A DNA stretch of 53,166 nucleotides from Candidatus Parvarchaeota archaeon (GTDB lineage Archaea > Nanobdellota > Nanobdellia > JAFCGN01): positions 1 through 53,166 of the forward strand of contig JAFCGN010000007.1 in the NCBI GenBank assembly GCA_017608045.1, in the 5' to 3' direction. Of the stretch, positions 17,795 to 51,830 are shown in pieces. The position numbers and the translations under genes were made by a program. The first letter of the stretch is position 1, and the number at the start of each line of letters is the position of its first letter. The notes below the pieces were generated by a model. That model made no database searches. It was not told where the DNA came from and saw only the letters and a program-made list of their open reading frames with translations.

Positions 17795-18154
17795 ATGAGA
17801 TTATACAGGGTTAAAAACGAGGAATTAATGAGTCATGCAATTGATTGGCAGAATGAAATTTTTAATTTAGTGTCTCTTTTAAGGGAAGTTGATGAAAATG
17901 ACAAACAAGTGAATTCTTTTTTAATAAACTTATTGGATGGTTTTAATGCCTTTCTTTATTGGAAATGGCCAAACAAGCATTCAGAGGAGGAATTAAAAAT
18001 TATTGAAGAAAAAGGAAATTTTGTAAAAGAGTATTTTCAAAAAAAAGCAAAAGAAAGCGAATTGCCTGGGAATTCAAAATACTATAAGAAGATGGCGAGC
18101 ATAACAAAAGAAACCATAAATTATATTTTGAATTCTCAATATAAATTGCAGTAA
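17795..18154 (+). CDS. Hypothetical protein
   Basis: 119-aa ORF with genome-typical composition; no motif recognised. Confidence 0.6.
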   Translation: MRLYRVKNEELMSHAIDWQNEIFNLVSLLREVDENDKQVNSFLINLLDGFNAFLYWKWPNKHSEEELKIIEEKGNFVKEYFQKKAKESELPGNSKYYKKMASITKETINYILNSQYKLQ

Positions 18155-18237
18155 GCCCTTGGTGAGATTCGAACTCACGACCCCTGCCTTTCTTGTAGGA
18201 TTACGAGGGCAGTGCTCTACCACTGAGCTACAAGGGC
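18154..18237 (-). tRNA. tRNA-Thr(CGT) with 12-nt intron at 37/38 (intron 18190-18201)
   Basis: Minus strand: GCCCTTG TAGCTCAGTGGTAGAGC A CTGCC CTCGTA[ATCCTACAAGAA]A GGCAG GGGTC GTGAG TTCGAAT CTCAC CAAGGGC T; all stems pair. Confidence 0.93.
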
Positions 18238-36886: not shown

Positions 36887-37561
36887 TTAATATATTCTTG
36901 TGCCTCTAAAATCTTTTCCATTTAAATATTTTTGAAGTTCATTTAATTTTTTCCCATTTATTATTATTACTTCTATTCTATTTTTCTGTGCAAAAATGCT
37001 TGCTCTTGGGTCAAAAGGCAAATTTAAGCCAGGCTTCCATTTAAATTTAGAAATAATCTTAAGCATATCATCCCACATCATATTTTTTATAGGTTTTGCA
37101 TTTTGATATTTATTCGGGTCCTTATCATATACGTAGTCTATATTTGTCAAATTAATTACTCTATGCACATTCTGTTTTTTTGCAGCAATAACAGCATCAT
37201 AATCAGTGCTCCACCCAGGTTTCCAACCAGAACATATTATTATTTTTTTAGAAGTTATTATTTTTTCAGGATTTGAAACAACTTTTGGAAAAGCATGTTT
37301 TCCTAAAGAAGTTCTTATTAATTCTGCATTTAATTGCGTGACTTTTATTCCTATTATATCTAATTTTTTATTTTCTTTTACGCCAATTTTTTTTGCTGAT
37401 TTAATGTATTCTCTTGCTAAACTCCCTCCGCCAACAAAAGCAATTATGTCATAATTTTTTTTTAGTTCAACAAGTTTTTTAACAAGAGATTTGACAAAAG
37501 CATGGTCTATTCCATCTTTTTTACTTATTAAGGACCCTCCAACAGAAAGAATTAATTTCAT
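36887..37561 (-). CDS. pyrH: Uridylate kinase
   Basis: SVGGSLI, VGGGSLAREY, PGWSTD.DA, TNIDYVYDKDP, PFDP; ATG 37561 forms an ATGA overlap with the minD stop. Confidence 0.95.
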   Translation of the reverse strand: MKLILSVGGSLISKKDGIDHAFVKSLVKKLVELKKNYDIIAFVGGGSLAREYIKSAKKIGVKENKKLDIIGIKVTQLNAELIRTSLGKHAFPKVVSNPEKIITSKKIIICSGWKPGWSTDYDAVIAAKKQNVHRVINLTNIDYVYDKDPNKYQNAKPIKNMMWDDMLKIISKFKWKPGLNLPFDPRASIFAQKNRIEVIIINGKKLNELQKYLNGKDFRGTRIY

Positions 37562-38328
37562 GATTTGAACCAATCTAAAATTTTTTTAAAAATGCTTTTG
37601 CGTTCTTTAAACCTTTCATACTTTTCTCCAATAATCTCAGCTGCAATTTTTTTGTATTGCGTGCTTGCCTCGCATTCAGGATACTTAAAAACAACAGGTT
37701 CATGCTCTCTTAAACTTTTTTTTACAAAACGCGATTCCGGAACAATACCAATAAGTTCCATTCCAAGAAATTCTCTTATATTCTCAATAGGAAGTTCCTC
37801 TTCTGTTCCTTCGTATCTTGTTATAATAAAACCTATTACTCTAACGCCATATTCTTTTGCAAGCAAACTTGCTTTAAGAGCATCAGTAACACTTGGAAGA
37901 TTTGGGTTAACAACAATAAGCACTTCTGTTGCAGCAGCAATCGCGCTCTCAGCATTATTATCCAAACCTGCTGGACTATCAATTAAAATTATGTCTGCTT
38001 CTCCAACTAAATCAATAATCTCATCTCTCAAACTTTTTTTAAACTTCTTTTTTAATTCGCTGAAACTTATTCCAGAAGGAAGAACTTTAATCCCGCTTTC
38101 ATCAGTATATAATGCTTCTTTAATTGATATTTTACCGCGCAGAACATCATTCAGAGAGTATTTTGTTTTCGGCAGTCCAAGATGAATATTTAAATTAGGA
38201 GTTGTTATATTTCCATCTACTAATATTACTTTTCTACCAAAATCTGTTAAAGCAGCGCCAATATTGCTTACACTTGTTGTTTTACCAACCCCTCCTTTTC
38301 CGCTTATTACAGCAATAATTCGCGTCAT
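37558..38328 (-). CDS. minD: MinD/ParA family ATPase
   Basis: SGKGGVGKTT deviant Walker A, IDSPAG, C-terminal amphipathic helix SIFKKILDWFKS. Confidence 0.92.
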   Translation of the reverse strand: MTRIIAVISGKGGVGKTTSVSNIGAALTDFGRKVILVDGNITTPNLNIHLGLPKTKYSLNDVLRGKISIKEALYTDESGIKVLPSGISFSELKKKFKKSLRDEIIDLVGEADIILIDSPAGLDNNAESAIAAATEVLIVVNPNLPSVTDALKASLLAKEYGVRVIGFIITRYEGTEEELPIENIREFLGMELIGIVPESRFVKKSLREHEPVVFKYPECEASTQYKKIAAEIIGEKYERFKERKSIFKKILDWFKS

Positions 38329-44354: not shown

Positions 44355-44816
44355 ATGCCAATCATTGGAACAAACTTTTTAAAAATGCAATATGAGAGGA
44401 AACCTGTAGATTTAACTAAGGTTAAATTAGGAAAGATAGAAAGGAATTTTAGGATTGTTGATGTAACAGAGAGAAAAATAAATCTTAAAACATCTGAAAA
44501 AGCAATTGTATTTAAGTTTAATTTCAAAGTAAATTATTTTTTAGCAGAACCAAAAGATGGAGAATTAGGCACAATTGATCTGCTGAGTGAAATAATCTTT
44601 CTTCCATCAGATGATAAAGAAAGAAAAGACATAATAAAATCATGGGATAAAAAGAAAGACATACCTACAAATATTTTAAAAATGATTTTAGCAGCAGGAA
44701 TGGATATGACACAAACAGAAGCAATGTACAATGCTCGAAAAATCATGTTGCCACCACCAATTCCTTTACCACAAATAAAAATTGAGGGAATAGGTTCAGA
44801 GAAAAACAAAAAATAA
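44355..44816 (+). CDS. Conserved archaeal hypothetical protein (possibly SecB-like fold)
   Basis: GAGGTG RBS; MPIIG.NF.K...ER, F.F.F.V.Y, W......P, LPPPIPLP tail. Confidence 0.75.
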   Translation: MPIIGTNFLKMQYERKPVDLTKVKLGKIERNFRIVDVTERKINLKTSEKAIVFKFNFKVNYFLAEPKDGELGTIDLLSEIIFLPSDDKERKDIIKSWDKKKDIPTNILKMILAAGMDMTQTEAMYNARKIMLPPPIPLPQIKIEGIGSEKNKK

Positions 44817-45709: not shown

Positions 45710-45772
45710 AAATAATGAATGTTGTTCATCCTATATAAGCTATTCTATTCATTTGAATTGCGTTTTAAGGCA

Positions 45773-46068
45773 ATTTACTCAATTCTCACTTTTTAGTTTC
45801 TTCTTTTTATTTTTTTGAAATTTCTCATTTTTTTCTTTATTTGTTTTTCTCACTTTTTTATTACATTTTTTTTAATTATAAACTCCCACATATTTCTCAT
45901 TCATTCATAGAATTTATTTAGAATCTACAACTCTCACTTTTTTTTAAAATTCAATTTTTTTCTATTATTTTAATCCAAGAATATATATTCTTTCACTAAT
46001 AATTATTATTTACTTTTAAATGGCTTTGTTTTGCTATTTTTAATCATTTTTAACAACTCTCACTTTTT
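45773..46068. repeat. Dispersed direct repeats (T/C)TCTCA(C/T)TTTTT in pyrimidine-rich spacer
   Basis: Copies near 45783, 45821, 45847, 45893, 45931 and 46056; ACAACTCTCACTTTTT occurs twice exactly. Confidence 0.75.
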
Positions 46069-46161
46069 CTTATTTGGAAAATTTTTGTTAAAATATATTC
46101 TTTAAAATATATTATGGATAACCATATTTGATTATTTACTATAGTAAAAAATTGGAAAGTT

Positions 46162-46268
46162 ATGTGTTGGAACAAGTGTTGGAACTGTTGGAACAAGTGT
46201 TGAATGTGTTGGAACAAGTGTTGGAACTGTTGGAACACAACTCTTTTAAGTGTTGGATGTGTTGGAAC
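46162..46268. repeat. Iteron-like array of TGTTGGAAC
   Basis: Perfect copies at 46165, 46177, 46186, 46207, 46219, 46228 and 46260; degenerate copies at 46198 and 46251; 42-bp higher-order period (46162/46204). Confidence 0.95.
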
Positions 46269-46286
46269 ACATAGAAAGTGCTTAAA

Positions 46287-46889
46287 ATGGCAATTTGGGA
46301 TGTTTTTAAGAGAAAAAAACAAAAAACAAAAACAGGGCAAAGAGCTAAGTCTCGCTCTAAAACCCAACACAAGAAAAAAAGAAACTTAACACAAAAAAGT
46401 AAAAAAATATTTGAAAAAAAGCCTTTTTCAGATTTGAAGTTTACTGAAAATGAAATTGAGAATTGGAAACAAATTGTTAAAGTTGTGCAAGATCATCCTT
46501 TAAGTCAGGCAAGAGTAATTAATGATCAACTGTTGGGACAATTGTCTAAAGTGTTGGAACAAATGAATTCTAAACTTGATACATTAGTAAAATTAGACTA
46601 CATAATTTCCCTTTTAGAACAATCAAAAAAAGACATGGAAGGTAGGGGTGTTGAAACAAAAAGCATTGATTTGGCAATAAAAGAATTAAAGGCACTTTCA
46701 CTTAAAGACCAGGAAGCATATGAGGTGTTAAAGAAAGAGGGGGCATTAACAACTGAAGAGTTTGCGCAAAAAATAGGCATATCAAGAAGTACCGCAAGTA
46801 CAAGATTGAATAAAATGTATCAGTTGGGGTTGCTTGATAAGAAAACAATTGATAAAAAAGTGTTATTTGAAGTAAAAAAACACGATTAA
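46287..46889 (+). CDS. Coiled-coil protein with C-terminal winged-helix DNA-binding domain
   Basis: Basic N-terminus, heptad region, LTTEEFAQKIGISRSTASTRLNKMYQLGLLDK; start ATG 46287 (or GTG 46278). Confidence 0.88.
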   Translation: MAIWDVFKRKKQKTKTGQRAKSRSKTQHKKKRNLTQKSKKIFEKKPFSDLKFTENEIENWKQIVKVVQDHPLSQARVINDQLLGQLSKVLEQMNSKLDTLVKLDYIISLLEQSKKDMEGRGVETKSIDLAIKELKALSLKDQEAYEVLKKEGALTTEEFAQKIGISRSTASTRLNKMYQLGLLDKKTIDKKVLFEVKKHD

Positions 46890-47329
46890 AACATTTAATT
46901 TTTAATTAAAACTTTTATTACTAAATTTATGCGATTTAAAGAGCCTTTTTTGATTAAAAATTTGCTAAAAATGTGTTCTAAAAAAGTATATATTCTTAGG
47001 TGAAAACAGGACAAGTTAGAAGCAAAACTAAACTACTCAACGTTATAAAATTAACTCAGGTTTTATTTGTTTGTATCCAATAATAGGGATTATGTTGCGC
47101 AAAAGCCCAAATACACTCAACGTTGTGAAACAGGTTTTCTTTGTTTTTTTGGTTAAAAATCTCATTTATTTACTACGTTGTGATTTTGTTTCTTTTTGTT
47201 TGTAATCATGATGTGGTTGGAAAAAAGTGTTCGTAATCCTGTTTTTTACGCGTTAAAATCGCGTTCTGCGGAATATATATTCTGAGCTGAAAATACGCTT
47301 ATTTAGAAGCATTATTTTTTGGCATTTTT

Positions 47330-47382
47330 GATTAAAACTTTTAATCGAAAACAACAATAAAAAAGATTAAAACTTTTAATCG
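47330..47382. promoter_or_regulatory. Paired perfect palindromes GATTAAAA-C-TTTTAATC (candidate protein-binding sites)
   Basis: Identical 18-mers GATTAAAACTTTTAATCG at 47330 and 47365; degenerate copies at 46884 and 46904. Confidence 0.65.
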
Positions 47383-47785
47383 GTTTTTTGTGTTTTTTAT
47401 TAAAAACTAAAAGCAAATTTTTTGTTCTTAAGGTGATTTAAGGAGTTTTTAATATTTTGTTTTGCAGGGGTTTGAGGTAATAAGAAAGAACAAATTGTTG
47501 TGATCAATATTTCAAAATTATTTTTCTTAATCAAAAACACTTGCAAGCACTACTAAAATAATTACTTCTAAAAGAGTTAAACCAACAAAAATTAGAGAAG
47601 TTGTTTTTCATAGGCATCCTATTAAAAGTAGAACGCTCCCTCTAAAATATACCTTTGCAATGCTGTTTCTTTTCAGGAGCATTGACATTAGCTAATTTAA
47701 CCATAAATTTGATGATTAAATTTGTTCAATACAGATTCATAATTTTTTCGGTAGATTTATATATATCTTAATTATTTTAAGTAAT

Positions 47786-48853
47786 ATGGACAAGAGGACA
47801 AAAAAAGACAAAATTCTTCAGGATATTTCTTCTGCACTTAAGAAAAAACCCATGACTATAAATGAACTTGCAGAAACAATAGATCTTAATTGGACAACTG
47901 TAAGAGACAACTTGAAGATTTTGGAGAATTTAGGTCTTGTAAATTTCGAACATGAAAAAAGTAAAAAAATTTACTTTGTAAAGGAAGACCTTACTATTAA
48001 AGTAAAGAGAAGTAACACTTTTTTTGGATTACCTATATCTTCTGAACAAGAAAAAATTTTCAATACACTATTTAGTAAAACAAGAGAATTATGGGTTAAA
48101 GTAACTGGAAAAGAACCTGGAAAAACAAAGGTTTATAAAACAGCAGTTGAAGCAATCAAAGAATTAGGTTTAGAAGTACCTTATGGTTGGTATAAATTTG
48201 GAGAAGTATGTTTAATGACTTATGAACCAGAAAAAGAATACGTGCCTGAAATACAAATACCAAAAATTGATAGTGTAATAGAAAGAATTATAGAAAAATT
48301 TAAGACAATGAACACACTCGAGTTAGAAATTTATTGTTATTCAAAAAATTCTCTATATAAATCAAGTTTAGAAATAAGAAAAAAGTTAATAGAATGTGGG
48401 GGAAATATTAAAAATCTGGAAGGGTTACAAAAAGATCTTTATACTTTTCTCTTTTCAATGAAAAAAGGGGTATATGATGAAGAAACATTTGACTTAGTAA
48501 GAGATTTTGTGATTATTACTTCATTTTTAGTAAATAGCAAAAAAAATGCTCTGCCTCAAATAATACTTGCTTTTGAAACGATTTGGTCATTAATTGCAAT
48601 TTTTAATTTTATGTATTCTCTTGAAAAAGAATTTGGTTACAGTAGAAAAATGTTAGAAGAATATATGAAAGATAAAATACTTTCAGCTAAAGAAGAATGT
48701 AATTGTATATTATCGGATTTAAGTGAATTAATGAAAGAGAGTTTGTCTTCGAATGAAAAAGGATTTTCTCAAGGAAAATTAAAAGGTAAACTAAAAGAAA
48801 TTGATAGAGAAGAAGTGTTTGAAGAGTTTGCAGAAAAAATTTCTAAACATTAA
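47786..48853 (+). CDS. wHTH protein with SocA/Panacea(DUF4065)-like middle domain
   Basis: MTINELAETIDLNWTTVRDNLKILENLGLV HTH; KTKVYK...GWYKFG...T.ELE..Y pattern; helical C-terminus. The antitoxin-domain call is tentative. Confidence 0.65.
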   Translation: MDKRTKKDKILQDISSALKKKPMTINELAETIDLNWTTVRDNLKILENLGLVNFEHEKSKKIYFVKEDLTIKVKRSNTFFGLPISSEQEKIFNTLFSKTRELWVKVTGKEPGKTKVYKTAVEAIKELGLEVPYGWYKFGEVCLMTYEPEKEYVPEIQIPKIDSVIERIIEKFKTMNTLELEIYCYSKNSLYKSSLEIRKKLIECGGNIKNLEGLQKDLYTFLFSMKKGVYDEETFDLVRDFVIITSFLVNSKKNALPQIILAFETIWSLIAIFNFMYSLEKEFGYSRKMLEEYMKDKILSAKEECNCILSDLSELMKESLSSNEKGFSQGKLKGKLKEIDREEVFEEFAEKISKH

Positions 48854-49283
48854 GGAAATCAGATGGAAATAAGATTTCAATTTTATCTATGAAAATACTA
48901 AAGTGTTCTATGTTCCCTGTAACTAAAAAATCTGTCTTGGCTTTTATGGCTAAGACTGCATGTAGGGCATCTGCATAATGCGTTTCATTAGTGCTTCTGC
49001 ATATTTTTCTAGTTTTTTCTATGTCTTCTTTACTGGTCTTTACTTCTTCTGTTTTTAGGTTAAATTCATGAATAATTTTCTCAAAATTTTCCGAAGAAAT
49101 ACCTATTTTTTTACATTCTTCTTTTAACCAATCTGAAACAATAAGGATGAATTGTTCATCTCTAATTTTTTTGAATGTTTCAAATGCAAAGTATGAATGA
49201 GGGATAATTGTGTTCTCCCCTGATAAATAGTTCTTGAAGACATTAGTATCTAAATAAACTCTTTTTTGTTTGTTATTACCCAT
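48843..49283 (-). CDS. PIN domain (VapC-like) nuclease
   Basis: VYLDTNVF, E, YADALHAVLA, LVTGNIEHF. Confidence 0.92.
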   Translation of the reverse strand: MGNNKQKRVYLDTNVFKNYLSGENTIIPHSYFAFETFKKIRDEQFILIVSDWLKEECKKIGISSENFEKIIHEFNLKTEEVKTSKEDIEKTRKICRSTNETHYADALHAVLAIKAKTDFLVTGNIEHFSIFIDKIEILFPSDFLNV

Positions 49284-49490
49284 AAAATCAATACTTGAAC
49301 ATATTTTGTAAATAAATAATTTATTTTTAGTTTATGATAGTAATCTTAAGGAAAACAAGATGTATGCTTTATAATCATAAAAACTTTATAATTAAATAAT
49401 CCTAACAATACTTAGTAATTCATAAACATTAACAAGATTTATGAGTAATGAAGATGATAAGTATTAATTAATTATTTCTCTTACACTTTG

Positions 49491-49528
49491 CTCTCGCCTG
49501 TTCTTTCAGAGAAAAGAACGGGCGGGAG
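49491..49528 (+). other. GC-rich 16-bp stem-loop with G-U pairs
   Basis: CTCTCGCCTGTTCTTT-CAGAGA-AAAGAACGGGCGGGAG pairs fully on the + strand with two G-U wobbles. Confidence 0.7.
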
Positions 49529-49600
49529 TTTAGTATTTAGTAGCGGAAAAAAGTAATATTTATAAGTATGTGTAACTATTTGCTTATTTGAGGAATGAAA

Positions 49601-49753
49601 ATGACATCAAAGAACATAACACTCAAAGTAAATGCTAAGCTTTATAATAAATTTAGAAAACTCTGTAAGGAGGAAGGATGGATAGTATCTCGTCAATTTG
49701 AGAAATGTATGGAAGCAGAGTTAAAAAAGAGAGGACAAGAAAATGGAAGTTGA
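49601..49753 (+). CDS. Small ribbon-helix-helix-like regulator (not in ORF track)
   Basis: GAGGA RBS; MTSKNITLKVNAKLYNKFRKLCKEEGWIVSRQFEKCMEAELKKRGQENGS*; overlaps the next gene's start by 11 nt. Confidence 0.8.
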   Translation: MTSKNITLKVNAKLYNKFRKLCKEEGWIVSRQFEKCMEAELKKRGQENGS

Positions 49754-51830
49754 AACATTATTACGCGATATAGAAAACAAGGATTTAGTTCTGCCTGAAT
49801 TTCAGAGAGAGTTTGTATGGAAAGAACAGGATGTAAAGACATTTATTCAATCTTTGTATAAAGGATACCCTACAGGTTCTTTACTTATTTGGAAAACTCT
49901 TAACCCACCAAAAATAAGGGGAGAAAAAAAAGATGCTGAGGGGGTTTATACTCGTGTTCTTCTTGACGGACAGCAAAGATTAACTACACTTTACTTATTC
50001 ATTAAAGGTAGATCCCCTCCATATTACCCCGATATGAAGAAGCGATTTAATCTTTATTTTAATGTAGAAACTGAAGAGTTCAGATATTTTCAAAAAACTT
50101 TAATGGAAGGTAAGAAAGAATGGATTTCTCTTTTAGATTTTTTTAAAGCTGGAAGTGCTGCTACATTTATAAATAACAGCGAAGACAAGGAGTTTTATTT
50201 TAAACATTTAGATCAATTAACAAAACTTGAAAATATAAAGACATATGATTATTTTGTTGATGAAGAAAAGCTTGGAAAATTAACTGAAATAAAAGAAGTT
50301 GTAAGAATATTTAACTTAGTTAATAAACAAGGACGAACATTATTAGAGGAAGATTTGGCGTTGGCTCATGTTTGTGTTTTTTGGCCTGAAATTAAAGAGA
50401 TTTTTAGAAAAGAATTGGAATTATTAGAAAAAAGCGGTTTTGAATTTGATTTTAATTTTTTGATTTTATGTTTAAACTGTGTTGCAACAGGTCATGCTAA
50501 ATTTGATAGTTTTTATAATGTTTCTGAAGATAAAATAAGAGATGCATGGACAAAAGTAAAGAGAAGTTTGGAATATTTGATTAATATACTTCACGACAAA
50601 GCTTATGTTAGTTCGACTAAATCTTATGAATTAAAATCTAATGCTTTGTTAGTACCGATGATTGTTTACTTATCCAATAACAGGTTTGAATTTAAAGATG
50701 AGAAAACATTAAACAAATTCTTATATTGGTTTTATAATGCAATGATGTGGGGAAGATATACAAGAAGAGGAAAATCATCGCCATTAGAACAAGATGTTGT
50801 AACAATCACAAGAGAAAATTCACCAGAATCATTAATCCATAATTTTAAAAGAGAAGTTCCATATTTTGAAGTCAAGCCTGAAAATATTAAAGGTGCTCCT
50901 GTTACAAGCCCGTTTTTTAATATGATGTTTATTATAGCTAAATCAGAAGGTGCAGTGGATTGGTTTAATGGTCAAGTTTTACATTCAAAATTGATTGGAA
51001 GTTCTTATAGGTTGCACAAACATCATATCTTTCCAAGGAGTATATTAAAGAAATATGGTTATTATAATGAAATTGAAAAGAAAAAAATGGTCAATGAAAT
51101 TGCTAATAGAGCATTCCTAACAGAGAGAGCTAATATTCAAATAAGAAATTCAAAACCTGAGAAGTATTTACCTAAAGTATTGAAAAAATACCCTAGTGCA
51201 TTAAAGTCTCAATTTGTTTCTGAGAAAGAAGATCTTTGGAAAATTGAAAATTTTGAAGACTTTTTAAGAGATAGAAGAAAAAGGATTGCAGAACAAATTA
51301 ACAAATTTATGAAAAATTTAGTGGATAGTGATTTGCCTAAACTAGATATTCGTGAATTAATTAAACAGGAAGAAAGCTACAATCTTGAATTTAAATCAAC
51401 ATTCTCTTGGAATCTAAAAGAAGAAAAAGTAGATAAAGATATAAAATATTCAGTTTTGAAAACAATTGTTGGGTTTATGAATGCAAACGGTGGGACTCTT
51501 CTTATTGGGGTTAGCGATGACAAAAAGATAATTGGCTTGGAATATGACTATAAAGCAAATTGGAAAGGAAACAAAGACGGTTTCTTGCTAGATTTTAGAA
51601 ATTTTATTGAAAAACAGATAGGTATAACAAATTATAATCGTTATATCACCCTAAATTTTATGGAAATTAATAATAAAGAGATTTTAATGGTTCAAGTTGA
51701 AAAAAGTTTAGATCCAATCTTTGTCAAAGCGAACGGTAAGAAAATTATGTATGTTAGATTAGATAACAAAACTGAACCTATAGATGACCCAGAAGAAATA
51801 AATAAGTATATTGAAGATAATTGGAAATGA
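49743..51830 (+). CDS. GmrSD-like (DUF262 + DUF1524/HNH) protein fused to Schlafen/AlbA_2 domain
   Basis: DUF262: LPEFQREFVW, GYPTGSLL.W, LDGQQRLTT, IFNLVN..G. HNH-like: HHIFP...IANRAFL...AN. AlbA_2: EESYNLEFKST, IVGFMNANGGTLLIGVSDD, YVR. Confidence 0.9.
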   Translation: MEVETLLRDIENKDLVLPEFQREFVWKEQDVKTFIQSLYKGYPTGSLLIWKTLNPPKIRGEKKDAEGVYTRVLLDGQQRLTTLYLFIKGRSPPYYPDMKKRFNLYFNVETEEFRYFQKTLMEGKKEWISLLDFFKAGSAATFINNSEDKEFYFKHLDQLTKLENIKTYDYFVDEEKLGKLTEIKEVVRIFNLVNKQGRTLLEEDLALAHVCVFWPEIKEIFRKELELLEKSGFEFDFNFLILCLNCVATGHAKFDSFYNVSEDKIRDAWTKVKRSLEYLINILHDKAYVSSTKSYELKSNALLVPMIVYLSNNRFEFKDEKTLNKFLYWFYNAMMWGRYTRRGKSSPLEQDVVTITRENSPESLIHNFKREVPYFEVKPENIKGAPVTSPFFNMMFIIAKSEGAVDWFNGQVLHSKLIGSSYRLHKHHIFPRSILKKYGYYNEIEKKKMVNEIANRAFLTERANIQIRNSKPEKYLPKVLKKYPSALKSQFVSEKEDLWKIENFEDFLRDRRKRIAEQINKFMKNLVDSDLPKLDIRELIKQEESYNLEFKSTFSWNLKEEKVDKDIKYSVLKTIVGFMNANGGTLLIGVSDDKKIIGLEYDYKANWKGNKDGFLLDFRNFIEKQIGITNYNRYITLNFMEINNKEILMVQVEKSLDPIFVKANGKKIMYVRLDNKTEPIDDPEEINKYIEDNWK

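Follow-up and report, generated by a model that had tools for sequence, protein, structure and literature searches.

A winged-helix gene and its conserved flanking motifs form a single-copy chromosomal locus, a candidate centromere-like or anchoring module, in a sub-lineage of Nanobdellota-type archaea

The DNA analysed here, a 53,166-nt stretch from a Candidatus Parvarchaeota archaeon (hereafter, the window), is the whole of contig C11 in a genome of 774,884 bases distributed over 20 contigs (~29% G+C, estimated 92.5% complete), and our subject is a winged-helix gene within it together with the motif-laden DNA on either side. The gene content of the contig is chromosomal, including aminoacyl-tRNA synthetases, Hjc, RsmB, diphthamide synthase, KaiC-like and two-component genes, pilus-type ATPases and three tRNAs. 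The winged-helix gene encodes 200 aa from an ATG at 46287 that is backed by the family alignment, and is bordered by stretches free of open reading frames (ORFs) of 577 nt upstream (45710-46286) and 896 nt downstream (46890-47785), the latter ranking fourth by length among the 48 ORF-free gaps that reach or exceed 300 nt in the 775-kb genome. Its immediate neighbours are a divergent MBL-fold gene and, 896 nt downstream, a second winged-helix gene. A first-pass annotation had described a coiled-coil/winged-helix gene with long non-coding flanks, five motif families and very A+T-rich tracts. The gene and both flanks proved real, every one of the five families was found where it had been placed, and GC content falls to 0.17-0.19 in the A+T-rich tracts vs 0.26 in typical intergenic DNA.

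The gene is preceded, on its own strand, by a tandem array of nine TGTYGRAW units (Table 1). Unit starts at 46165, 46177, 46186, 46198, 46207, 46219, 46228, 46251 and 46260 yield start-to-start spacings of 12, 9, 12, 9, 12, 9, 23 and 9 nt, and the last unit stops 27 nt short of the ATG. Tandem repeat analysis with TRF returned a period of 21 nt, with 3.5 copies and 88% matches, and inspection by eye placed a TATA-like CTCTTTTAAG at ~46241-46250, within the 23-nt gap. Direct repeats in a ~21-22-nt register are found, in short, beside an A+T tract and over the promoter of the gene. The genome contains 24 copies of TGTTGGAAC, 8 of them at 46165-46552, against ~4 expected genome-wide from composition. 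Three further unit-like words lie within the gene itself, and in one family group of relatives the units continue into the part that encodes the linker of the protein, where TGTTGGAAC reads as V-G-T codons; this placement of units inside the linker-coding region would be consistent with selection at the DNA level.

Upstream of the array, dispersed CTCACTTTT-type boxes in the same orientation begin at 45784, 45848, 45932 and 46058, which account for four of the six genome copies of TCTCACTTTTT, and at 45823, where the variant TCTCATTTTTT is found; their class-wide consensus was built from 83 boxes of 19 loci. The A+T palindrome GAATATATATTCT, a 13-mer, is limited to two sites in the genome, 45979 and 47271, and ATATATTCT is only mildly enriched, with 5 of its 42 genome copies in the locus. 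On the downstream side, the second copy of a 38-nt direct repeat lies at 47274-47311 (79% identity), the CAACGTTG-type boxes are separated by 80 and ~57 nt, and both genome copies of ACTCAACGTT fall in the locus, at 47035 and 47115. Rfam searches of the flanks gave nothing at gathering thresholds, and at E<=10 returned one chance-level STnc230 match (22 bits vs a cut-off of 50). An RNA gene in the CAACGTTG-flanked segment was considered and rejected, since RNAalifold on the segments of four loci confined pairing to the palindromic boxes with one another, with unconserved interiors and no shared fold; beyond this segment, the 896-nt gap was screened for RNA by Rfam alone. A dif/XerA role of the A+T palindromes was likewise dropped, the sole tyrosine-recombinase match of the genome being sub-threshold and on contig C4 (the archaeal dif consensus was not compared). 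A scan for bacterial promoters and terminators, a model that does not cover archaeal promoters, gave the same counts as shuffled sequences.

Table 1. Features of the locus and its candidate partners, with positions in the window and the evidence used.
Feature	Position	Strand	Basis
Winged-helix gene, 200 aa	46287..46889	+	ORF list, family alignment, domain profiles, AlphaFold2 model, Foldseek
Nine-unit TGTYGRAW array, seven units exact TGTTGGAAC	46165..46268	+	Motif counts, TRF, spacing analysis
Three more unit-like words (spacing 12 and 9), exact TGTTGGAAC at 46552	46528..46562	+	Within gene
Five dispersed same-orientation boxes, CTCACTTTT-type, class-wide consensus tAAcTCTCACTTTTt	45784..46068	+	Motif counts, 83 boxes of 19 loci
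A+T palindrome GAATATATATTCT, first genome copy	45979..45991		Motif count
A+T palindrome GAATATATATTCT, second genome copy	47271..47283		Motif count
A+T-rich spacer, GC 0.17, with ATATATTCT at 46093	46069..46164		Composition, motif count
TTAAAAnTTTTAA-type palindromic words, from the stop codon on	46885..46963		Motif scan
38-nt direct repeat, first copy, begins TATATATTCT	46987..47024	+	Repeat search
Three CAACGTTG-type palindromic boxes (47035, 47115, degenerate 47172)	47035..47183		Counts, loci of relatives
Two exact 17-nt palindromes GATTAAAACTTTTAATC (47330, 47365)	47330..47381		2/2 genome copies
Archaeal MinD-type ATPase, candidate partner only	37558..38328	-	TIGR01969, 248 bits (cut-off 201.75)
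153-aa protein, function unassigned, SecB-like predicted fold	44355..44816	+	Synteny, structure comparison

The protein encoded at the locus consists, in this order, of a conserved N-terminal peptide, a basic low-complexity linker, helices and a C-terminal winged helix. An alignment of 29 family members gave the consensus M-G-[LIF]-[LF]-[DS]-[RK]-[LFI] for the peptide and a linker of variable length that is net basic in 23 members and acidic in 6, and revealed an invariant W, an HPLSQ motif and N, followed by a long helix; the recognition helix, SRSTASTRLN in the window protein, is SRSTASxRLN in the family. In the AlphaFold2 model (mean pLDDT 68), the stretch 13-52 is disordered, two helices run from 48 to 68 and from 72 to 119 in a coiled-coil-like arrangement, and the winged helix at 137-196, made up of a helix-turn-helix and two strands (139-196), is modelled with pLDDT 87-93. 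Residues 137-191 matched MarR_2 (27.2 bits, cut-off 27) and HTH_24 (25.0 bits, cut-off 21.9), and Foldseek retrieved CadC, SmtB, MarR and CodY domains with E from 2.5e-4. Among the rows listed, Foldseek and Protein Data Bank (PDB) profile searches returned generic ArsR/SmtB, MarR, CodY and Lrs14-type domains only, and Pfam, NCBIfam, PADLOC and PHROGs concur on this generic class, the last of these and PADLOC through weak winged-helix-domain matches. The protein is a member of the ArsR/MarR/TrmB-type winged-helix DNA-binding superfamily.

Signatures of known replication and partition proteins were also looked for. No AAA+ family matched the 200-aa protein at E<=0.1, which bears out its earlier description as non-Orc1, and Orc1, Cdt1, ParB, TubR, RTP and Rep proteins are all missing from the Foldseek and PDB profile matches listed. 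Foldseek ranks 1-49 contain no Cdt1-type chain, the model having a single C-terminal winged helix and not two, and Rep_3 is not among the 24 Pfam families matched at E<=0.1. As for ParB, only HTH_ParB was hit (E 0.0087, 16.6 bits, below the cut-off of 22.6), with no ParBc domain. No ribbon-helix-helix (RHH) family matched and the model has no N-terminal beta-ribbon, while RTP is absent from the best 60 of 84 PDB sequence hits (E<=1) and from the Foldseek rows listed. Residues 1-135 had no usable match in the ESM Atlas. A likeness of the N-terminal half to ESCRT-III/PspA was rejected, as the CHMP1B match in the PDB profile search (E 0.042) is not significant, probably reflects coiled-coil composition, and was accompanied by no Snf7 match in Pfam.

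We then followed the gene and its flanking motifs among relatives. Full-length homologues are present in 29 of 60 related genomes, one per genome, at E 1e-16 to 1e-45 and 34-50% identity, and 4 further genomes gave weak winged-helix matches only. An even, phylum-wide sample contained the gene in 2 of 250 genomes, which assigns it to a sub-lineage, and there the module is vertically inherited. A profile search of 1.84 billion representatives yielded 70 proteins at E<=1e-10, and relatives, where sources name any, are labelled ArsR-family regulators. Among draft genomes the gene is often near a contig end, at base 2 in G030, 713 in G029, 1526 in G034, 1642 in G059 and 1665 in G038, and no copy turned up in the same-genus genome G001; assemblies are probably interrupted at the locus by its repeats or the variable right flank, which makes absences in drafts unreliable.

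The architecture around the gene was compared over 19 loci, of which one (L020) begins inside the gene and was excluded from upstream counts (n=18). Within 400 nt of the start, 17 of 18 loci have three or more TGTYGRAW units on the strand of the gene, and 14 have five or more, whereas none of the 18 has three units on the other strand. CTCACTT boxes occur on the gene strand in all 18, with two or more per locus inside 900 nt and 77 altogether, vs 0 on the opposite strand; elsewhere in the related loci the density of this word is ~0.13 per kb per strand. Loci contain 7 to 24 tandem units, and in one family four loci carry a pair of arrays that together hold 20-24 units. The intervals between units (175 in total) measure 9 nt in 92 cases and 12 nt in 40, often in alternation, so that two units cover 21 nt, or two helical turns. 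The distance from the last unit to the start codon is at most 60 nt in 18 of 19 loci. Arrays thus do flank the homologues, as had been anticipated, but they are not lineage-specific, the same motifs being kept across families.

The remaining elements recur as well. Inspection by eye placed a TATA-like box upstream of, inside or downstream of the array, varying by family, A+T-rich stretches with ATATAT words between boxes and array, and, in most of the loci, TAAAACTTTTA-like palindromic words just past the stop codon. ACAACGTTGT palindromes lie 3' of the gene in threes, at intervals of 55-81 nt, in L010, L011 and L019, with degenerate forms in the window and in L023. Gaps in the related loci measure mostly 400-700 nt upstream and often 350-900 nt downstream. 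Pooled over 19 loci, A/T tracts between -600 and -150 relative to the start codon recur with a period of 10.5 nt (z 6.5, with mononucleotide shuffles as the only control), which suggests intrinsically curved DNA in the box region. In one family (L022, ~581-1237, and L015; genomes G024 and G038), CTCACTT boxes spaced ~100-120 nt apart lie in an opposite-strand ORF of 245-250 aa, whose translation, as read, suggests a HAD-like protein; a DNA motif seems here to be superimposed on coding sequence. A metagenome scan retrieved one locus, ~99.5% identical, with 29 substitutions and one one-base insertion over ~6 kb, and with the array and the five boxes free of changes; it is too close to be informative for footprinting.

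In the genomes scanned, these motifs cluster in one place. The window's own genome has no further cluster of array units or boxes, and across 956 kb of G051 and 727 kb of G037 array and box clusters were found nowhere but at the gene. Five genomes without the gene, four of them single-contig, showed no box cluster and only 0-14 scattered copies each, no more than a reversed-pattern control. Outside the locus, 108 of the 109 TGTTGGAA words in the own genome are in coding DNA and one is intergenic, and there is no sign of a regulon for the unit motif. Tandem direct repeats lie, in other words, at the promoter of the putative binder's gene, at one site per replicon. Furthermore, array units vary with the recognition helix: in 6 loci with F or L at helix position 7, an A occupies unit position 6 in 75 of 96 units, and in 13 loci with S or T it does so in 26 of 96, a covariation that rests on 2-3 lineage events. 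Collectively, these data establish how the locus is built, that it is unique in the genome and conserved, and that gene, array and boxes occur together. The earlier proposal of a dedicated protein with a multi-motif DNA module is upheld, and chance repeats are not the explanation.

The left-hand surroundings of the module are conserved too. In 11 relatives of several families, the same block comprises an amino-acid kinase, archaeal MinD, a 644-aa secretion-type ATPase, two small proteins, a D-aminoacyl-tRNA deacylase, the 153-aa protein and sometimes the MBL-fold gene, with tRNAs included, and then the module. The MinD/ParA noted earlier 8 kb upstream is an archaeal MinD by TIGR01969 (Table 1), and because the block is kept, in 11 of the 29 gene-bearing relatives the gene and a MinD ortholog remain 5-13 kb apart. 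In the others, gene and MinD are on separate contigs or there is no MinD match (G029, G053), and the window's own genome encodes two other ParA/MinD paralogues besides the linked one. The 153-aa neighbour has no family match, resembles SecB clusters with TM 0.65-0.69 and is upstream of the module in 11 of 11 relatives examined. The right flank shows no conservation between families. In the window (47786-51830) it holds the gene of a 355-aa protein whose N-terminal part is an HVO_A0114/ArsR-type winged helix, an opposite-strand PIN-domain gene, a RepB-regulator-like (RHH-type) ORF of 52 aa and a GmrSD N+C fusion of 695 aa that carries a Schlafen AlbA_2 domain (PADLOC HEC-05, E 7.5e-39); the PIN and GmrSD-Schlafen genes agree with the defence-like island previously recognised to the right.

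We favour, at a probability of roughly one in three (0.35), the reading that the locus is a single-copy, lineage-specific chromosomal nucleoprotein module, autoregulated and centromere-like or anchoring. The broader proposition, that the module may be a chromosome-maintenance element of this DPANN (Nanobdellota-type) group acting either as a centromere-like handle or as a second origin, we hold tentatively, at slightly less than even odds, and the same cautious weight goes to the composition envisaged for such an element: a non-Orc1, non-ParB winged helix, a helically phased one-way 9/12-nt array and at least four further motifs. It would work without an adjacent NTPase gene, possibly via the archaeal MinD or the membrane.

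Mechanistically, the protein would dimerise via its long helix and read TGTYGRAW units with its winged helix, as the covariation partially supports, and the 9 + 12 = 21-nt register would set the units on one face of the DNA helix, with the array coated cooperatively. Since the array sits on and around the gene's own promoter, we propose that the resulting complex sets the level of the protein by autorepression. The motif being at no other promoter, the complex would act in cis at one place, and a regulator of itself alone has no output, which makes a cis-acting role at the locus more likely. As a centromere-like handle, the complex could couple the locus to a partner through the N-terminal peptide and the flexible linker; speculatively, this partner might be the MinD-type ATPase of the shared synteny block or the membrane, the peptide as a membrane-targeting helix being a possibility only. 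Further binding sites of the module would lie in the CTCACTTTT boxes and in the A+T and downstream palindromes. An excerpt of PMC13722703 describes an N-terminal helix as often used by adaptors of ParA-like ATPases and the N-terminal part of HpaB as the proposed contact with a ParA/MinD-type ATPase.

Several observations weigh against a centromere-like or anchoring module. No NTPase gene shares an operon with the protein, the nearest of ParA/MinD type being 8 kb off on the other strand; good MinD orthologs (~190-230 bits) also occur in ~14 relatives without the gene, and the linkage of MinD might amount to no more than synteny. The module went undetected in about half of the closest relatives and in 248 of the 250 phylum-wide genomes, and with so patchy a distribution it cannot be a general segregation device. 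The class assignment of the protein stops at a generic ArsR/MarR winged helix, with no TubR, ParB or RTP match among the Foldseek rows listed or the best 60 of 84 PDB hits. The amphipathic character of the N-terminal peptide is weak, 9 of 29 members exceeding 90% of shuffles in hydrophobic moment over residues 2-12. Finally, no protein has been assigned as reader of the boxes or of the A+T and downstream palindromes. A complex prediction of a MinD dimer with ATP and residues 1-70 of the protein (score 0.00, mark 0.32) speaks neither way.

A plain autoregulated transcription factor with no structural role in the chromosome would explain part of these data. The array would then be an oversized operator for sharp autorepression, with the protein perhaps also controlling the variable right-hand genes. 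Indeed, its winged helix is of the generic ArsR/MarR/TrmB type, named relatives are called ArsR-family regulators, and in 18 of 19 loci units lie across or directly against the core promoter. However, 7 to 24 units per locus far exceed what autorepression needs, the motif is at no other promoter in the genome, the position of the array relative to the TATA-like box, judged by eye, varies by family, and four more conserved motif families and 400-900-nt gene-free flanks would be left over. We consider this explanation unlikely, though it retains appreciable weight.

A secondary, iteron-type origin was in turn weighed, in which a Rep-like protein would bind 21-nt iterons, the A+T tract would melt, boxes would recruit host factors and downstream repeats would control firing. 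In iteron replicons such as P1, F and pSC101, boxes, an A+T-rich tract, direct repeats over the promoter, the gene and further repeats follow one another, and this order recurs at the module (A+T tract, GC 0.17), as does a 21-nt repeat period. Archaea with several origins are also known, one of them using the non-Orc1 initiator WhiP (in part from an excerpt of PMC4010727). On the other hand, the genome has its Orc1 origin elsewhere. TIGR02928 (Orc1/Cdc6) scored above cut-off at two sites only, C12:50675-51772 (445 bits) and C20:35544-36551 (218 bits), and upstream of the former, at C12:51849-52253, three 24-nt origin recognition boxes (ORBs) of TTTCCATAGGAAATAAAGGGGTGT type and inverted mini-ORBs surround a pure A+T block, a layout that, from its sequence, is that of a textbook Orc1-adjacent archaeal oriC. 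The own-genome ORB consensus had 0 matches in the window at up to 3 mismatches. A lone full ORB of the same type occurs at C3:36362-36385, ~200 nt upstream of ftsZ (C3:35044-36177, minus strand), a possible Orc1 binding site at a cell-division promoter.

The position of the module in relatives speaks in the same direction. It lies on the same strand as orc1-1 and 161 kb (of ~1000 kb) from it in G037, 210 kb (of ~1100 kb) in G051 and 63 kb (of ~500 kb) in G053, also far from the second orc1 paralogue in all three. Cumulative GC skew along G037:C5 has its minimum at ~120 kb, which is orc1-1, and the module (279 kb) lies at a local maximum. Ranked by a score for plus-to-minus switches in gene orientation, the module comes 7th among 304 windows in G037 and 24th among 419 in G051; the score is negative at the orc1-1 loci. 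Genes diverge at orc1 and converge at the module, which argues against an origin, though weakly, given that the orientation signal comes from only two genomes and that switches of this kind occur often. In G051:C1 (956 kb) the skew forms no clean V and its residual is monotonic once the coding-strand effect is removed, and skew alone cannot settle secondary origins here. Within the window, the shift from G-poor to G-rich sequence near 46150 that the first-pass annotation had pointed out does exist; it is a coding-strand change, with the same flip at the other strand switches of the contig, and so does not stand as a replication-type skew signal. Together with a single winged helix, no AAA+ domain and no likeness to Rep_3 or Cdt1, genomes of just 0.5-1.3 Mb and no relatives among the viral contigs, plasmids and phages searched, these results leave an iteron-type origin improbable, and the suggestion of a new initiator-origin, whose tested initiator features are all missing, is not sustained. 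The iteron layout fits about equally well but the origin tests speak against it, and we therefore prefer the centromere-like or anchoring complex.

A polar landmark, either a replication-fork barrier like RTP/Ter or a chromosome-domain boundary, with one-way sites beside the gene of their binder, seems less probable again. RTP is a winged-helix protein with a dimerising helix, and its autoregulated gene is just downstream of polar Ter sites. At the module, the units and all 77 boxes are unidirectional, a strong convergent orientation switch is evident in G037 and G051, the conserved synteny block has its edge, and the common orientation with orc1-1 in G037, G051 and G053 means that a fork from the origin would meet boxes, array and then gene. 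Nevertheless, the module lies 13-19% of genome length from orc1 and not opposite to it, residual skew shows no switch at the module after removal of the coding-strand effect, the orientation switches are frequent and were scored in two genomes, and RTP is not among the best 60 of 84 PDB hits (E<=1).

An origin of the locus in a mobile element that integrated beside the defence island and left its replicon or partition site behind, as had also been considered, is very improbable. In its favour, the right flank varies between families and holds PIN and GmrSD-Schlafen genes in the window, and many draft contigs end only a few kb from the gene. Against it, the genes to the left, with MinD, the secretion-type ATPase, D-aminoacyl-tRNA deacylase and tRNAs, form a housekeeping block shared by 11 relatives across families, the module is single-copy, no integrase is near the locus (a weak Phage_integrase match on C4 is the only one), and no homologue was found in IMG/VR viral contigs, PLSDB plasmids (72,556 records, tblastn) or phage records. 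Something else takes up the remaining probability beyond the centromere-like or anchoring module and these four explanations.

Elsewhere in the window, a perfect 86-nt tandem duplication (471-642; 2.0 copies, 100% identity) reaches the start of an 894-aa ORF at 620. A tRNA at 18154-18237 on the minus strand was detected by Rfam only (63.7 bits), is absent from the ARAGORN output and may have an intron or unusual structure. Between 22904 and 27600, genes for a PAS-rich histidine kinase, two single-domain response regulators and KaiC-like ATPases are clustered.

How chromosomes are organised and segregated in these archaea with tiny genomes and tiny cells, mostly uncultured, is poorly explained, and the role of archaeal MinD in DNA handling is unclear. 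The locus provides a testable handle on these questions, with one protein, one array and one place per genome, in a layout kept in at least 18 species-level genomes; a small protein and short sites make in vitro tests of binding, spreading and partners simple. If centromere-like, the module would represent a chromosomal archaeal system unrelated to ParB, SegB and AspA; if a secondary origin, it would bring the non-Orc1 initiators of archaea to two. Even a mere autoregulator of this kind would be unusual, with putative binding sites inside its own coding sequence and five motif families kept together. A literature search, with supplementary tables outside its scope, found no description of the module, and in the portion of a Nanobdellota preprint on this topic that we consulted (10.64898/2026.05.13.725050) genomes are rotated to ORC1 only.

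Known systems share some of these features in different combinations. With RTP/Ter of B. subtilis the module has in common a winged helix with a long helix and a gene just downstream of one-way sites; unlike it, the module protein has no sequence match to RTP among the PDB hits listed, its sites are 9-12-nt tandem units and not paired 16-nt half sites, and the module does not face the origin across the chromosome. SegB and HpaB belong to the ribbon-helix-helix class, and AspA, a PadR-type winged helix, acts on a palindrome. Like SegAB, the AspA-ParB-ParA system of pNOB8 and Haloferax HpaAB, the module pairs a site-specific binder, here putative, with its own sites, yet those systems are encoded beside their ATPase and the module is not, and it differs from them in fold class, in its long one-way array and in gene order. 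Cdt1 and WhiP carry two tandem winged-helix domains. Gene-free repeats and an A+T tract beside a winged-helix gene recall Orc1/Cdc6-ORB origins and the WhiP-dependent oriC3 of Sulfolobus, but the module has neither an AAA+ domain nor ORBs, the ORB origin of the genome is elsewhere, and the single winged helix sets its protein apart from WhiP and Cdt1. Iteron replicons (RepA/RepE/pi) show the same succession of boxes, A+T tract, promoter repeats, gene and more repeats and the 21-nt period, whereas the module protein carries a single winged helix where theirs carry two, and does not match Rep_3, the module is chromosomal with vertically kept synteny, and orientation and skew stand against origin activity.

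In TubR/tubC of pBtoxis-type plasmids and ParR/parC of plasmid R1, the type III and type II partition centromeres, a small dimeric binder, which in the case of TubR is a winged-helix protein, occupies repeats of about one helical turn at its own promoter, at one site per replicon and with autoregulation. Unlike these systems, the module is chromosomal and archaeal, has no cognate TubZ or ParM in an operon, adds a coiled coil, an N-terminal peptide and a low-complexity linker to its protein, shows no specific sequence or fold match to them, and surrounds its gene with at least four extra conserved motif families. Like them, it places the gene of a small DNA-binding protein behind tandem direct repeats at its own promoter, and the parC centromere of plasmid R1 itself consists of direct repeats flanking a promoter (Dam and Gerdes 1994, as cited in an excerpt of PMC13722703). 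By analogy, the plasmid centromeres parC/ParR and tubC/TubR, together with the omega sites, would be the closest working analogues of the module.

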